DNA of 64,000 nucleotides, from contig CM000155.2 in assembly GCA_000004695.1 (NCBI GenBank), positions 1,696,001 to 1,760,000 of the forward strand, read 5' to 3'. Every line of letters begins with the position of its first letter. Positions within the stretch are counted from its first letter, which is position 1. This stretch comes from Dictyostelium discoideum (lineage: Eukaryota). Shown one piece after another: positions 52,396-64,000 of the stretch. Made by a program: the position numbers and the translations under genes. The notes under the pieces are model-generated. The model was not told where the DNA came from. It ran no database searches and saw only the letters and a list, made by a program, of their open reading frames with translations.

Positions 52396-56103
<3,708 letters not shown>

Positions 56104-56242: not shown

Positions 56243-57304
56243 TTATTCAATTGTTGGTTGATTCATTTCTGCTTTGTATAATAAAAAAGATTGATAACTT
56301 AAAAGTAGTTTTAAATTTTTATTATTCTCTTTATAATTGTCATGTGATATAATATTAAATATATCTTCATACACAGATCTTATTTGAATTTCTATTTTAA
56401 TTTCACCAAATTCAATATCAACATGATAAGCACGATATCCATATAAATCTGATTTTCTTTCTATTTCAATTCTAAAAAAAAAAAAAAAATATATATATAT
56501 ATTAATACTAACTATTATTATTATTATTATTATTTATTATTTCATAAATTATAAATTAATTAATTACATTTTAAAATAACCATTTAATTCCAATTCTTTT
56601 AATTTTTCAATAATAAAAGAAGTTTTATAATTTGGATTTATAATCATTGAAATACCACATTGATCAAAGATTTGAAACCAGTGCACTATTTTACCGGCAA
56701 TATATGATCTTTTAATTTCTTTTCTTTTCATACTTTCAATTGTTTTTACTCTAGAATAAATTGGTTTATATAAATATTGGTTTGGAATTGATTTTTCCCA
56801 ATAGATTAAAAATTTATTTAATTCAATTGGGAATTCTTTTCTTAATAATTCGGGATAATCAAAATAAAAAATTAAACCTTCAATATTTCCATTTTTTTCA
56901 ATAATATTTGAGTATATGGGGTTTGAATAATTTTTACTATAAATTATATGTTGTTGATGTTGAGGTTGTTGTTGTTGCTTATTAAATGCTTTTGCATTAC
57001 TAAAAATTTTATAATCCCCTTTATTGGTTAGAAAAAAAAAAAAAAAAAAAAAAACCAAGGTTTAATAATTTTTTAATATTTTTTTTAAATTATAAATATC
57101 TTCCAAAACATACCAATATATTAAAATGTAAAATAATATTCCTATTTTTAGAAAATAAAAAAATAAAATAATAAAGTAAATTATAATGAAAAAATAAAAA
57201 AAATTAAAAGTAAATAATAATTATATTAATATAGGATAATTTTTTTTTTTTTTTTTAAGAAAGTATGAAAATTCATTACCCGTAGAAAGTCTTGAAATAT
57301 TCAT
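56243..57304 (-). CDS. Small RelA/SpoT-homologue synthetase-domain protein (small alarmone synthetase-like, (p)ppGpp-synthetase fold), about 234 aa
   Basis: Three minus-strand exons: 57304..57280 (MNISRLST, donor GTAATG), 57018..56568 (acceptor after a CTAAC branch-like site and poly-T; ends ..ELNGYFK, donor GTAATT) and 56471..56243; frames checked, 705 nt in total. Synthetase motifs in order: YSRVKTIESMKRKEIKR (RxKxxxSxxxK), FDQCGISMII (D.xGxR(I/V)), DLYGYRAYHVDIEF (GY(R/Q)SxH) and EIKIEIQIRSVYEDIFNIISHDNYK (E(V/I)QIRT..mh.wAE.eH..YK). No HD hydrolase domain is present. Confidence 0.6.
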
Positions 57305-57373
57305 TTTAATTTAAAATAAAATAAAATAAAAAAATTTTGACAGGGTCATATATTAAACTAAATTTCAAACCCC

Positions 57374-57444
<71 letters not shown>

Positions 57445-58061
57445 TTTTAAAAATAAAAAAAAAAAAAAATATTAAACTAAATCTCAAACACAAAAAAAAA
57501 ATAATAAAAATAAAAAAAAAAATAAAAATAAAAAATAAAAATAATTAAAAAAAAAAAAATTAATAATAAAAAATAATTTATCGCTGTGTACAAATATTCA
57601 TTGAAGATTGTTTAATCATTTTTAATCATAAAAACAAAAAAAATAAATAAAATAAAAATATCTGGTTTCAAAATAAATAAAATAAAATACAATAAAAAAA
57701 AAGATTTTTTTTTAAAAAAATAAAACAAAACTTGATGAGTAAATTTTATATTATTAAAGAATTTTTATTTTTATTTTTATTTTTATTTTTATTTTTATTT
57801 TTATTTTTATTAATTATTTTTTTTTAGATAAGGTTATATTAGGAAAATTATTTTATTTGTTTTCGTGCAACCTACAAAGTTTCCACCACGACAATAAAAA
57901 ATAAAAAAAAATAAAAAATTTAATTTTAAAAATAAAAAAAAAATCAAATATTCACAAAATTCTGCGTCTTGTAATATTAAAAAAAAAAAAAAAAAAAAAA
58001 AATCAAGAAAAAAATTATTATTGTCAAGAATTTTTTTTTTTTCTTTCATTTATTTATAAAA

Positions 58062-59226
58062 ATGCAATCTAAACAATTTGATGAAGTAGTAGTAGAGGTA
58101 AAACATGTATCAAAACGTAAGGTTTTTTTTTTTAAAAAAAAATAAAATTTGTAGTATTTTTTATTTTTTATTTATTATTTTTTATTTTTTATTTATTTTT
58201 ACTTTTATAAAAGATTATAAGATTGCAGGTAGAGAAGATAGTGTTAAAGCATTGAATGATATACATTTAGCAGGTGATTCAGAGTTATTACCAATTAGAA
58301 GAGGAGAATTTGTAATGTTAAGAGGACCATCAGGTGGTGGTAAAACAAGTTTATTAAATTTATTAGGTACAATCGATAGAGCAACCGAAGGTGTTATAGA
58401 ATTATTTTCAAATCCAATCAATGTAGATTCAACTGATGAATATTTAGCTAAATTAAGATTAGAGAAAATTGGTTTCGTTTTTCAAACTTTTAATTTATTA
58501 GCAACAATGTCTGCTTTTGAAAATGTAGAATTACCAATGATTATATTAGGAAAATTAAATGAAAAAGAAAGAAAAAAGAGAGCAATTGAATTATTAACTT
58601 GTATGTGTATTTTAATTTTTTTTTTTTTTTTAATTAAAATTTGTATTTATTAATCTTTTTTTATTATTTTTTTTTATTATTTTTTTTTTTTAGTGGTTGG
58701 TTTGCAAGATAGATTAGATCATTTACCTTCAGAATTATCAGGTGGTGAACAACAAAGAGTGTATGTAAATAAATATAATAATAATAATAATAATAATTTT
58801 TTTTTTTTTATTTCCAAATTAATTTTAATAATCTTTATTTTTTTTTTTAGAACAATTGCAAGAGCTCTTTCAAATGCACCAGAAATTTTATTATTAGATG
58901 TATGTATTTTTTAAAATATGATATTTTTGGTGGTTCTTTAAATTTGAAGTACTAAAGTAAAAAAAAAAAATAAAAAATAATAGGAACCAACAGGTGATTT
59001 AGATACAAAGAATACAGTTGAAGTTATGGATTTATTATTAGATTTAAATTTAAAGTTAAAGACAACTTGTATTATGGTTACTCACAATCCCGATATTGAA
59101 TGTTATGCTGATAGAATTTTGTATATTGCAGATGGTGTTTTTGAAAAACAAGTATTTAATACTGAACAAACAAGATTAGATTATGATGAATATATCGCTT
59201 ATTTAAATTCTCAAGCTGGTCATTAA
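58062..59226 (+). CDS. ABC transporter ATP-binding protein of the bacterial LolD/MacB/FtsE type (Dictyostelium ABCH-like), with no fused transmembrane domain
   Basis: Five exons: 58062..58116, 58214..58600, 58694..58760, 58851..58899, 58984..59226; donors GTAAGG, GTATGT, GTATGT, GTATGT, with frames checked. The spliced protein is MQSKQFDEVVVEVKHVSKHYKIAGREDSVKALNDIHL..LRGPSGGGKTSLLNLLG (Walker A), a Q-loop FVFQ, signature LSGGEQQRVTIARAL, Walker B ILLLDEPTGDLD and H-loop IMVTHN. Confidence 0.85.
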
Positions 59227-59317: not shown

Positions 59318-61363
59318 TTATTCATTTTTAATATTAATTTGATTATCATTAAAGATATAATTTTGATCATTATTATTATTGTTATTTAATGGGTAAATAG
59401 GAGCGCTGGTTCCTTTTGGAACTGGACAAGCATATTTGGTAGCAATAAAAATTGTAAAATGACAATTCATTTCGTAGACTGCATAAACAACGAATTCATA
59501 TCCACTATCACAATTTAATAAATATTCTGATGTGATTGGGTAATTTTCTGCACAAATTTGAGAAGTGTTATAGTAAAGAGCAATACCTTGGTTTTGTTGA
59601 CCATTAATATTTGTATAGAATTCATAGGAACTTTCATTTTTATAGCCAATTGCTGCAGATCTCTCTCCATTAATATAATTGGTTATACATGATTGAGTTT
59701 CATTAGATTCATTAAGATTATCAATACAATAACTATTAGAAGAACATAAATTGAAATAATACTATTTAATTTTTATTATTATTATTATTATTATTGATAT
59801 TAGTGAGACATTAGTATACTATTACATAATTATTAATTATTAAATATTATTTTTAACTACTTACCATGGTTAATGTATTATTATCCCAGTATTCAAAATT
59901 TGAAGAATCAAGTTGAGAAAGATCTACTACTAAGTGAGGTGTGTAATCGAAAATACATGTATCCATTGGATTTGGTGATGGGTTTGGTGTTGGAGTTGGT
60001 GATGGAGTTGGTGAAGGAGTACGGGTTGGTGAAGGAGTACGGGTTGGTGTTGGAGTACGGGTTGGTGAAGGAGTTGGTGATGGAGTTGGTGATGGAGTTG
60101 GAGTATAACCAACACAAGCACTTACAGTTTCAATGGTAAAGTAATAGGTACAATTTGAGAGATAAAAACTTGAAACTTCAAAACTAGTATTATAACTACA
60201 AACCATATCAAATACAATAGAATTACCTAAACCAGTTTCACAATCACCATTTCCAGAGTTGTATAATAACTCTAAACCTTGTTCTGATACTTGATATTGA
60301 CCAGTGTTTGAATATGAGATTAAATATTCATATGGTGCAATCTTTTGACAAGCTTGAACATCACTATTAAATAAATTGGAACAATACTCATTTGGTGCAC
60401 AGAAATTGAAATAATATTCAACACTTGTTTCGTTATCATAATAAACATAACCTGAATAATCGGAACTAAATAAAATTACAATTGTTAAAATAAATATTAA
60501 AAAAAAGAGAAATTTAAAAATAAAAAATTCATACATACGCAATTAATGGTGATAAATCAATTTCTTGTGATCCAAATTTAATTTGACATGATGATGGGAT
60601 TGGGTTATTTGGTGTTGGAGAAGGGGTTGGGAAAGGAGTTGGAGTTGGTGATGGAGTTGGTGAAGGAGTTGGTGATGGAGTTGGTGAAGGAGTTGGTGAT
60701 GGAGTTGGTGATGGAGTTGGGGTTTGAGTTGGTGATGGAGTTGGGGTTTGAGTTGGTGATGGAGTTGGTGAAGGAGTTGGTGATGGAGTTGGCGATAGAG
60801 TTGGGGTTTGAGTTGGTGAAGGGGTTGGTGAAGGAGTTGGTGATGGAGTTGGTGATGGAGTTGGTGATGGTGTTGGGGTTTGAGTTGGTGAAGGGGTTGG
60901 TAAATATGGACATGCTAAAGAAGAGTGAATAAGAAAATTATAAGTGCATGATGGATTTTCACTTAAACTTGTAACTAAAAACTCTTGTGATGGATCACAA
61001 ACAAATAAAAAGGTATCACTACGATAAGAAGTACCTTCACAAACTAAGTTAGTGGTTGAGTTATAGTATAATAGAATTCCAGTACCATCATCACTTATTT
61101 TATAATTGCCATTTACAAAAGCACCTAATTCATAAGTGTATATTGATTTATGGTTTTCTTGATAAACCTGACAACTTTGAGGTCCAGAATAACCAATGAT
61201 TTTCTCACAAATTAAAGAAACATTACAAAATGAAAAGTAATACTTTTAAAATAAAAAAAAATAATAATCATTAATACATTTACAACTTTTTAAAATTATT
61301 TTTTTAAAATATTGGTATTTACTTGATTACCATTATTATCATTGTATTGATAATCATTTTCGC

Positions 61364-61952: not shown

Positions 61953-62587
61953 TTAAAAATTTCTTCTCATTGTTACTTTTTCTTTTGGTTCAATAATATT
62001 GTTAGTTGATTCCACAAAAATATCTTTAATTTTGTTTTTCATAATATTGATGTTTGGTTGATTACTATAATTGTTGGTTGTTGGTGTTTGTTGTGTTGTT
62101 GTTGTGCATAATTTATAGTCAGAGCAAAGTGTTTGTGGATTTTCACCATTAGAAATAGCACCAGCAATAATTGGAGCTGCTAATATCATAAAGAATTTAC
62201 ACTTTTTTTTTTTTTTTTTTTTTTTAAAAAAATAAAACAACAAAAGTTAAAATAAATAATAATAAAAAAAAAAAAAAATAATAATAATAATTAATTAATT
62301 ATTATTATTTTTTTTTTTATCAATAATAAAATAAATAAAAATAAACATACCTCCATTGTAATATTTGATGGTACTAAAGTGCAAATATTTTTTAAATCTG
62401 TTTCTAATTGAGCTTTTGTTAAATTATCATTTTTTACAAGGAATTCGCCAAATGAAACAGCAAATTCACATAAATCACAGCCAACTTTTGGTGATGGAGC
62501 TGGTGAGTTAGTTGGAGTAGTGGTTTGTGCAAATGAAATTGAAATGCTACAAATAATTAAAATTAAAGCAATGATTAATTTATTCAT
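61953..62587 (-). CDS. Saposin-like (SapB-domain, amoebapore/Apl-type) secreted protein
   Basis: Exon 1 is 62587..62351 (signal peptide MNKLIIALILIICSISISFA, a PT-rich stretch, then GCDLCEFAVSFGEFLVKNDNLTKAQLETDLKNICTLVPSNITME, donor GTATGT); exon 2 is 62201..61953 (CKFFMILAAPIIAGAISNGENPQTLCSDYKLC..). Together these give the six-cysteine saposin B spacing C-x2-C...C...C...C-x5-C. Confidence 0.6.
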
Positions 62588-62890
62588 TTTTGAAAAACGG
62601 TAAATAAAAAATAAAAAAAATAAAACAAAAAAGAAAAAATAGAAGCCAAAAAAAAAAAAAAAAAAAAAATAAATCAAAAAAAAAAAAAAAAAAAAAATCT
62701 AAAAAAAATATCTTTTAATCAATCTATTTAGAAAAAATAGGTTGGTAAAAATAAATTGGTCTTTAACTGGCTTTTTATTTTAGATTCGGTTATGTTTTAG
62801 GATATATAAGGGGATTATAGAAGTATTGTATATCATTAAAACTTTTAATGTTTTTTTAATTTTCGCTATATTTCTTAAGAAAACATCAAA

Positions 62891-62972
62891 GACATCGTAG
62901 CGAAGTGGTCTAACGCGTTTGACTTGAAATCAAATCTCCTAGGAGGCGCAGGTTCGAACCCTGCCGATGTCG
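62891..62972 (+). tRNA. tRNA-Ser (anticodon UGA)
   Basis: Acceptor GACATCG/CGATGTC with discriminator G; anticodon stem TTTGA/TCAAA with loop CTTGAAA; long variable arm TCTCCTAGGAGGCG; T-arm GCAGGTTCGAACCCTGC. Length is 82 nt. Confidence 0.9.
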
Positions 62973-63247: not shown

Positions 63248-64000
63248 TTTTTTTTTTTTTTTTTTTTTTTAATATTGGATTAACAAGATTGATATATGTC
63301 CATCTGTGTTAATACGAGTTTTTATTTAATATTTATTTATAGGCTTATCATTTAAGCTGAAGGGTTATTTTAATCATATGAATTGATCAAAAGATATAAT
63401 ATTTGGGAGAGATGATTCTGGAATACAATAGTAATTAGCTGTTGTTTTTCTTAGCTTGATCGTTGAGGTGAGAAGGATCTTAGGATCTTTGAAATTATTA
63501 TGGTCTTTTGCTGATAAGTTTTTCAGATCTTTTGCTTTTTTGATGTATTCTAGAGTGGCCAATTTGTGCCATTTCTTTAGAAGGGAGCTGTATGATAGTG
63601 ATTCATTTGTTAAAGGATCTTCACTGTATATTTGATTGCAAATCCAAATCCAAATGTTGTGGAGGATAAGGGCCATTAGGTTTCTATATGCGAATGATCT
63701 GGTTAGATCATAGTCTATTGCTTTATAGTTCCATTCAAAGTATTCTTTATGGAATCTGTGATTGGCGTAATCTGCATTCACTTCTTGATCTTTTTTGGCT
63801 GTTGGTGATAATTTTGGAGTTATTCTATTAATGAAATTGTTATTTTGCCTAATTCTTGTATGGTGCCAGTTTTTACCTTTGCCTGTGGTAATAAAGATGA
63901 AATTTTTGAGTTTATTTATTTTTATGAATTGTTTTGTTTTCTTGCATGAGAAGAACAGGTGACCGTATGGGTCTTTGCTCATATCTTCTTTGCAGAGTGG
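63248..64000 (-). mobile_element. 3' end of a second tRNA-targeted non-LTR retroelement (TRE3-like, distinct subfamily), extending beyond the window
   Basis: The minus-strand ORF 63374..63982 encodes the ORF2 C-terminus with the same Cys/His tail as element A (DPYGHLFFSCKK; ..HNIWIWICNQ compare ..HQIWIWLCKS). The 3' UTR ends in an oligo(A) tail (+ strand T27 at 63248-63274), about 275 bp downstream of tRNA-Ser. Confidence 0.65.

Follow-up and report, generated by a model that had tools for sequence, protein, structure and literature searches.

A divergent synthetase-only RelA/SpoT homologue with a probable secretion signal, beside an unrelated abcH.1 gene in Dictyostelium discoideum

Introduction

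Two divergently transcribed genes, DDB_G0292546 on the minus strand and abcH.1 on the plus strand, lie head to head in the stretch analysed here, a window of 64,000 nucleotides from Dictyostelium discoideum AX4 chromosome 6 (GenBank CM000155.2, positions 1,696,001 to 1,760,000). DDB_G0292546 is a divergent, synthetase-only RelA/SpoT homologue (RSH), the product of which is probably equipped with a secretion signal and not cytosolic, while abcH.1 encodes a stand-alone ATP-binding cassette (ABC) ATPase of a different history. Taken as a whole, the reading favoured here, that of a signal-bearing, divergent synthetase next to an unrelated AbcH.1 through recent chance adjacency, is considered probable on balance.

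The gene pair is real but already catalogued. The existence of the synthetase gene is not news, since UniProt has an entry for it and a list published in 2011 includes RSH genes of Dictyostelium with a synthetase domain only. What is added is an N-terminus of conserved signal type, the change of the donor site throughout the family, purifying selection on the catalytic core and the lack of any real link to AbcH.1. These points shift the sensible experimental focus towards the secretory pathway or the medium, and towards several donors and acceptors. The remaining interest lies in the biochemistry of a eukaryotic RSH enzyme that is conserved, is probably secretory and has a changed donor site.

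Identity of the two genes

Both genes are annotated. The minus-strand gene corresponds to DDB_G0292546 (XP_629663.1, UniProt Q54D33), a "RelA/SpoT domain-containing protein" of 237 aa encoded on a 3.60-Mb contig, and the plus-strand model of 266 aa is residue for residue identical to AbcH.1 (EAL61171.1, Q8T665, DDB_G0292384). These exact protein matches identify the window as AX4 chromosomal sequence carrying two annotated genes, and its composition (A/T-rich, with poly-Asn tracts and short GT...AG introns) is typical of Dictyostelium. DDB_G0292546 extends from its ATG at 57304-57302 to its stop codon at 56243-56245 on the minus strand, and abcH.1 from its ATG at 58062 to the end of its stop codon at 59226 on the plus strand.

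An earlier note, made from the letters of the window, had placed the two divergent start codons about 760 bp apart and had given the ABC gene five exons; both statements hold, the spacer being 757 bp and the five-exon translation identical to Q8T665. The same note was right to regard the genes as integrated into a eukaryotic genome. Contamination was rejected because both genes contain introns and lie on megabase-scale contigs in eight Dictyostelium genomes.

A divergent member of the RelA/SpoT family

The RelA_SpoT domain expected by the earlier note was found by Pfam (PF04607) at 30.2-30.3 bits, which exceeds the gathering cut-off of 27 (E 6e-7), and the match covers 112 of the 113 profile positions; the dictyostelid paralogues score 29.6-52 bits. 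Pfam finds nothing else in the 237 residues, and the protein thus lacks HD hydrolase, TGS and ACT domains. All of the ordered synthetase motifs quoted in the note were located (Table 1). When a profile built from the orthologues was compared with the PDB, the best match was 6fgk (E 1e-6), followed by other small alarmone synthetases (SAS) of the RelP/RelQ type and by RelSeq. The depositor's name for 6fgk is "GTP pyrophosphokinase YwaC", which is the RelP of B. subtilis (PMC5794853).

The predicted fold points in the same direction. An AlphaFold (AF2) model of residues 56-237, built from an alignment of 34 sequences, reached a predicted local distance difference test (pLDDT) of 86 and a predicted template-modelling score (pTM) of 0.81; a preceding model from eight sequences was set aside (pLDDT 55, weak fold matches). 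In a Foldseek search with the AF2 model, the top 27 PDB matches were all RelP or RelQ (E 4e-9 to 6e-7, TM 0.52-0.67), whereas long Rel/RelA enzymes, exported SAS, FaRel2 and CapRel ranked lower. DDB_G0292546 is thus a divergent synthetase-only RelA/SpoT homologue, and the claim that it has a synthetase without an HD domain is upheld by Pfam, by the RelP profile match (E 1e-6) and by the RelP/RelQ fold matches.

Comparison with the RelP and RelQ enzymes of Firmicutes (PDB 6ewz, 6fgj, 6fgk, 5ded and 5dec) shows both likeness and distance. Shared features are a single synthetase domain of about 200 residues, a fold that includes the N- and C-terminal helices (TM 0.60-0.67), and the motifs RxKxxxSxxxK, D..G, GY..H, EIQIR(T/S) and H...YK. 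However, over structural alignments of about 175-185 columns the identity is only 18-24%, the adenine-stacking Arg of DxxGxR is replaced by Ser, and DDB_G0292546 is a spliced eukaryotic gene that encodes an additional signal-like N-terminal segment and a Q/N-rich linker. It also fits no NCBIfam SAS model, none of which gave a match at E<=1.

The active site is retained except for one stacking arginine

In alignments of dictyostelid and bacterial SAS, R101, K103, S107, K111, D130, G133, Y174 and H178 are invariant, and E189, Q191 and H205 nearly so. The roles of the equivalent residues are known from the structure of SaRelP with AMPCPP, in which Lys80, Ser84 and Lys88 bind the ATP phosphates, Asp107 and Glu174 hold the Mg2+, His190 contacts the ribose and the adenine of ATP is stacked between Arg78 and Arg112 (PMC5794853). 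The equivalent of Arg78 is R101, which is kept; Arg112, the Arg of DxxGxR, is Ser135 in DDB_G0292546. The earlier note had already seen this Arg-to-Ser change, which turns out to be family-wide in dictyostelids. All eight orthologues read DQCGIS, with Ser135 throughout, and in dictyostelid relatives further away DYCG precedes x-Q, x-D, x-S or x-A; G-x-R is retained by every bacterial relative inspected. A Trp five residues upstream of the Asp (W125) is invariant in the dictyostelid family.

Among six genomes, the pairwise ratio of non-synonymous to synonymous substitution rates (dN/dS) of the catalytic part is 0.10-0.29. Such purifying selection speaks for a functional protein, and the retention of every metal and phosphate ligand for a functional enzyme with a remodelled donor-base pocket. 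Donor binding has probably changed, since no dictyostelid member keeps both of the arginines that sandwich the adenine. A search of the literature on DDB_G0292546, abcH.1 and Dictyostelium with ppGpp found no functional study.

One orthologue stands apart in two respects. In the genome L002 (4258-5332), Arg replaces the Gly of the GY motif (KYRYRAYH) and the N-terminal region contains a long poly-Gln expansion; this 266-aa prediction has no Pfam match on record.

Exon structure and a conserved hydrophobic mini-exon

The three-exon structure proposed in the earlier note (57304-57280, 57018-56568 and 56471-56243; 234 aa) did not hold, as annotation and cross-species comparison both give four exons. 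Its product had no exact match in a collection of 15 billion proteins, and the four-exon model of Table 1 alone reproduces the annotated 237-aa protein exactly, with a 96-nt intron splitting the RelA_SpoT domain. The comparison drew on seven related genomes fetched via AbcH.1 (L001-L007, among them L005, D. citrinum, and L006, D. discoideum GCA_054883475.1).

Each of the seven related genomes has, between exon 1 and the large exon, a 37-nt segment with AG and GTAAGA at its borders. It is equivalent to 57141-57105 of the window, where the AX4 annotation has a mini-exon of 28 nt. The segment keeps its length, phase and splice sites while the flanking intron sequence is unalignable between species. 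Its product is always hydrophobic, reading GILFYILIYCYVL in the D. discoideum complex, ELLLHLIICFFIL in the species of L001 and L005 (the latter being D. citrinum) and ELFFYFLIYCFIL in D. dimigraforme. The homologue of Tieghemostelium lacteum likewise opens with a hydrophobic stretch, MNSFITIILIHIFVLHFVSIFG.

A hydrophobic core of 10-13 residues thus follows a charged n-region (MNISRLST, with one Arg), as read from the sequence itself rather than from a trained predictor. Exon 1 and the mini-exon together have the layout of a signal peptide or of an N-in signal anchor, and the product of DDB_G0292546 probably carries a secretion signal. The description of the enzyme as cytosolic in the earlier note, which had missed the mini-exon, appears doubtful because this conserved exon encodes a hydrophobic N-terminus resembling a signal peptide.

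An anomalous patch of substitutions in the AX4 reference

The annotated 5' part of the gene overlaps an anomalous stretch in the AX4 reference. Over the 11,984 bp shared by AX4 and the near-identical strain L006 there are 27 mismatches, of which 22 fall in a patch of 315 bp, three in a homopolymer region and two elsewhere. The AX4 base is found in none of the seven other genomes, other species included, at 17 of these sites, and in some of them at the other five. Every one of the 22 derived bases is the same as an immediately adjacent base, where 6.4 +/- 2.1 would be expected at random (none of 5000 simulations reached 22). Fifteen of the sites lie in annotated coding sequence, and these comprise 12 non-synonymous and 3 synonymous changes, the ratio expected without selection.

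The patch bears directly on the gene model. It creates the GTATGT donor of the AX4 annotation and destroys the conserved GTAAGA donor, and it also creates the AG (57019) that served as acceptor in the model of the earlier note. The simplest explanation is that the patch probably consists of base-calling errors in the AX4 reference, although slippage or dislocation may instead have produced a genuine cluster of mutations. If it is an error, the true AX4 protein would be the 246-aa form of L006 (P0012), and the database model and that of the earlier note would both be wrong over the first ~85 residues. In practical terms, the annotation of DDB_G0292546 may be in error over its N-terminal 85 residues and its 5' exons. 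The catalytic domain is identical in the window and L006 and is unaffected.

Outside the patch, the spacer between the two genes contains a poly(A) run of ~65 nt (~57376-57441), the length of which differs from that in L006. This change in length makes up most of the non-substitution differences between AX4 and L006.

AbcH.1 and the pairing of the two genes

AbcH.1 is a soluble protein of 266 aa without a membrane domain that matches ABC_tran (PF00005) at 99.6 bits. Its best NCBIfam models are LolD, MacB, YbbA, FtsE and DevA (182-190 bits), and its best PDB matches are MJ0796 (E 3e-55), MacB, YbbA, LolD and BceA. These matches make the label of a MacB/LolD/FtsE-like stand-alone nucleotide-binding domain (NBD), given in the earlier note, a fair one; the scores against the NCBIfam equivalogs (LolD, MacB, YbbA and FtsE) are below all of their cut-offs of 265-966 bits. 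The ABCH group of Dictyostelium ABC proteins has been classed as lacking membrane domains (PMC3743828). AbcH.1 resembles MacB/LolD/YbbA/FtsE/MJ0796-type proteins in being a stand-alone NBD with Walker A, signature, Walker B and H-loop, but differs from them in belonging to a pan-eukaryotic group of orthologues at ~70% identity.

The closest relatives of AbcH.1 are indeed eukaryotic orthologues, with 94% identity in Polysphondylium violaceum, 89% in Heterostelium album and ~70% in Naegleria, Arcella and the zoosporic fungi Catenaria and Paraphysoderma. By this comparison AbcH.1 is an ancient, strongly constrained pan-eukaryotic gene and not a lineage-specific bacterial import. The description of the locus as a pair of bacterial-type genes, given in the earlier note, is not supported. 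Co-transfer of the two genes from a bacterial operon was rejected, since AbcH.1 orthologues are ~70% identical across eukaryotic supergroups. The conservation of AbcH.1 is unusually high for a MacB-type NBD without an assigned role or membrane partner.

The head-to-head arrangement was found in all seven related group-4 loci of the D. discoideum complex, that is, in eight genomes including AX4. It is missing in the three other dictyostelids compared. No RelA_SpoT homologue lies within 6 kb of abcH.1 in H. album or P. violaceum, in which the divergent neighbour of abcH.1 is a polyketide synthase and a pyridoxal-dependent decarboxylase, respectively, and the synthetase homologue of T. lacteum has neither AbcH.1 nor the Rad17-like gene nearby. 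The juxtaposition thus looks recent and, among the dictyostelids compared, confined to the D. discoideum species complex. The evolutionary histories of the two genes are separate, AbcH.1 being pan-eukaryotic and much better conserved than the synthetase; they differ in age, rate and distribution, and nothing found links them functionally. The shared promoter and co-regulation suggested earlier are not supported, as the adjacency is missing in Tieghemostelium, Heterostelium and Polysphondylium violaceum.

Distribution of the family and earlier literature

An exhaustive search of 1.84 billion cluster representatives with a hidden Markov model (HMM) returned 30 matches at E<=1e-3 and seven at E<=1e-10; five of these seven have a named source, in each case a dictyostelid. 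A single-sequence phmmer search retrieved only five Dictyostelium clusters. The strong named matches comprise the group-4 orthologues, a T. lacteum protein of 217 aa and a second paralogue type of ~300-324 aa (D. dimigraforme and D. purpureum), which is without the N-terminal hydrophobic segment and has a conserved C-terminal extension of ~130 aa with a D-W/F-E-F ('DWEF') motif. Overall identity within the dictyostelid family is 28-40%. Two further strong or moderate matches come from metagenome contigs. Bacterial SAS-like proteins appear at E 1e-12 to 1e-4, none of them a clear closest donor, the nearest named match being a (p)ppGpp synthetase of Emticicia aquatilis (E 2.9e-7). The exhaustive and the word-indexed profile searches thus yielded no convincing orthologue outside the dictyostelids and no identifiable bacterial donor.

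Atkinson, Tenson and Hauryliuk listed two unplaced synthetase-only 'divRel[S]' proteins together with a Mesh1 hydrolase for D. discoideum in 2011, and likewise for D. purpureum (PMC3153485). They suggested acquisition by horizontal transfer, the donor of which could not be resolved, and raised the speculation of extracellular ppGpp; they also noted that reports of ppGpp in Dictyostelium were not reproducible (PMC3153485). The core finding is therefore not new, and UniProt already labels the protein as RelA/SpoT domain-containing. The 'divRel[S]' class of eukaryotes and archaea was defined for exactly such sequences, but the paper does not contain gene structure, a localisation signal or an active-site analysis, nor does it separate the two dictyostelid paralogue types, namely the short one with a signal segment and the one of ~300 aa (PMC3153485). 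The second 'divRel[S]' protein of that paper would presumably be the ~300-324-aa type.

A side observation from the same searches is a 729-aa prediction in a eukaryote proteome set ('gene2007-2470_t'), in which a RelA_SpoT domain of the dictyostelid type is joined to an adenosine deaminase domain of ADGF/CECR1-like type (A_deaminase 88 bits, A_deaminase_N 24 bits). This prediction could be a merged gene model or else a real fusion, which would hint at adenosine-nucleotide chemistry.

Proposed function and alternative explanations

DDB_G0292546 is an RSH of the 'divRel[S]' kind in a small, dictyostelid-specific family. A bacterial origin of the family is presumed because its nearest relatives outside the dictyostelids are bacterial SAS. 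Along with the modelled RelP/RelQ fold, it retains the ligands of the ATP phosphates (R101, K103, S107 and K111) and of Mg2+ (D130 and E189), the acceptor-stacking Tyr174 and the conserved His178 and His205. Given the kept catalytic residues and the purifying selection, the likeliest chemistry would be transfer of the beta,gamma-pyrophosphate of a nucleoside triphosphate to the 3'-OH of a purine nucleotide, with a product of the (p)ppGpp or (p)ppApp type. The catalytic domain would probably be lumenal or extracellular and not cytosolic, because the conserved mini-exon would provide an N-terminal hydrophobic signal peptide or signal anchor. The head-to-head order would be most simply explained by a gene-dense genome and not by a functional module.

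Several points weigh against this reading. The Pfam score only just exceeds the threshold for this orthologue group, and the signal-peptide call draws on hydrophobicity and conservation only. Loss of the adenine-stacking Arg could mean inactivity or a different substrate. Co-regulation through the 757-bp spacer is possible, as for any divergent pair in a compact genome. Finally, the accessions in the supplement of the 2011 paper could not be matched, so that DDB_G0292546 is equated with one of the two 'divRel[S]' proteins by inference.

The altered donor site invites the view that the protein is an inactive pseudoenzyme, an RSH fold with a nucleotide-binding or structural role in which loss of the Arg meant loss of ATP binding. 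Ser135 in place of the adenine-stacking Arg of RelP/RelQ, the weak Pfam score and the failure to match an NCBIfam SAS model are what one would expect of such a protein. However, the Mg2+ ligands, the phosphate-binding residues, the Tyr and the His are invariant despite an overall identity of 28-40%, dN/dS is 0.1-0.3, and a complete catalytic set is not expected of a pseudoenzyme; this view is very unlikely. Highly improbable, too, is a cytosolic (p)ppGpp synthetase that provides an intracellular signal resembling the stringent response and is co-regulated with AbcH.1 by a bidirectional promoter. The synthetase motifs and fold are intact, the divergent order with its 757-bp spacer is kept in eight genomes of the D. 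discoideum complex, and D. discoideum also encodes a Mesh1-type hydrolase (supplement of PMC3153485), all of which speak for this reading. The conserved N-terminal hydrophobic mini-exon, however, speaks against a cytosolic location, the adjacency is missing in three other dictyostelid genera, the pan-eukaryotic AbcH.1 is much better conserved and has a different history, and the reports of Dictyostelium ppGpp could not be reproduced (PMC3153485).

Two further explanations accept a protein that leaves the cytosol. The least probable of all is a toxin akin to the toxic small alarmone synthetases (toxSAS) FaRel2 and CapRel, which would be delivered to ingested bacteria and pyrophosphorylate the 3' CCA end of tRNA without making a nucleotide alarmone. 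FaRel2 and CapRel structures do occur among the fold matches, and a secretory-type N-terminus in a bacterivorous amoeba would fit. Nevertheless, RelP/RelQ fit better (E 4e-9, TM 0.6-0.67) than FaRel2 (E 3e-5, TM ~0.4) or CapRel (E 7e-5), and there is no known route for the enzyme into the bacterial cytoplasm. Unlike toxSAS modules, DDB_G0292546 is a monocistronic spliced gene with no adjacent cognate antitoxin, its neighbours being a Rad17/Rad24-like gene and abcH.1. A bolder form of the favoured reading is put forward only tentatively, as a rather unlikely one: DDB_G0292546 and its relatives would be active pyrophosphokinases, secreted or delivered to the phagosome or another lumen, that, with a donor site reshaped by the family-wide loss of the Arg, produce nucleotides like (p)ppGpp or (p)ppApp outside the cytosol. 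They would then be the eukaryotic counterpart of the bacterial exported alarmone synthetases (SaEAS and others, described in 2025, PMC12691689; PDB 8vx3), in which a synthetase domain likewise follows an export signal. The structure 8vx3 is among the fold matches (E 2.8e-5, TM 0.54); by contrast, identity in the structural alignment is 13%, and the signal of the amoebal protein, of the eukaryotic endoplasmic-reticulum type, is a putative one. If this were true, such nucleotides would be an extracellular signal, or else an antibacterial or prey-manipulating effector of a bacterivorous amoeba.

Features of the locus and neighbouring genes

Table 1. Coordinates of the features of the DDB_G0292546/abcH.1 locus (positions in the window)
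Feature	Position	Strand	Basis or remark
DDB_G0292546 exon 4: second half of RelA_SpoT domain and stop codon	56243..56471	-	four-exon model
Pfam RelA_SpoT match, residues 100-212	56321..56755	-	interrupted by intron 56472-56567
SHDNYK motif	56347-56330	-	read in exon 4
EIQIRS motif	56392-56375	-	read in exon 4
GYRAYH motif	56440-56423	-	read in exon 4
DDB_G0292546 exon 3: low-complexity and N-terminal helix region, first half of RelA_SpoT domain	56568..56999	-	four-exon model
DQCGIS motif	56665-56648	-	read in exon 3
RVKTIESMKRK motif	56752-56720	-	read in exon 3
Anomalous 315-bp patch, 22 substitutions relative to a near-identical strain	56799..57113		comparison with L006 and eight-genome alignment
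DDB_G0292546 mini-exon, 28 nt in AX4 annotation; hydrophobic core GILFYILIYC(YVL)	57114..57141	-	four-exon model = XP_629663.1/Q54D33
DDB_G0292546 exon 1 (ATG, 25 nt, MNISRLST-G)	57280..57304	-	sequence and GTAAT donor kept in L001-L007
Spacer between divergent ATGs, 757 bp, A/T-rich	57305..58061		sequence, comparison with L006
abcH.1 exon 1	58062..58116	+	translation identical to Q8T665
abcH.1 exon 2 (Walker A GPSGGGKT, Q-loop)	58214..58600	+	translation identical to Q8T665
abcH.1 exon 3 (ABC signature LSGGEQQR)	58694..58760	+	translation identical to Q8T665
abcH.1 exon 4 (Walker B ILLLD)	58851..58899	+	translation identical to Q8T665
abcH.1 exon 5 (EPTG, H-loop VTHN, C-terminus, stop)	58984..59226	+	translation identical to Q8T665

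On the other side of the synthetase gene, a large open reading frame (ORF) of the plus strand (54343-56103) encodes a RAD24/Rad17-like helical-bundle domain (41.7 bits) and contains an (AAT)n poly-Asn tract at ~55975-56037. This ORF and the synthetase gene are convergent, with ~140 bp between their stop codons. Its exact translation is missing from the protein collection, and the annotated gene therefore has further exons upstream.

Downstream of abcH.1, two minus-strand genes encode a Cys-rich protein with (PTPS)n Ser/Thr/Pro repeats (59853-60542) and a small secreted-looking protein (61953-62677), the counterparts of which in related genomes give a weak match to saposin-B (SapB_1). A tRNA-Ser(UGA) gene follows at 62891-62972 and, ~400 bp beyond it, a minus-strand ORF of 202 aa (63374-63982). 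The corresponding stretch of the related locus L006 contains a reverse-transcriptase (RVT_1) gene, which suggests a tRNA-targeted retroelement near tRNA-Ser(UGA).

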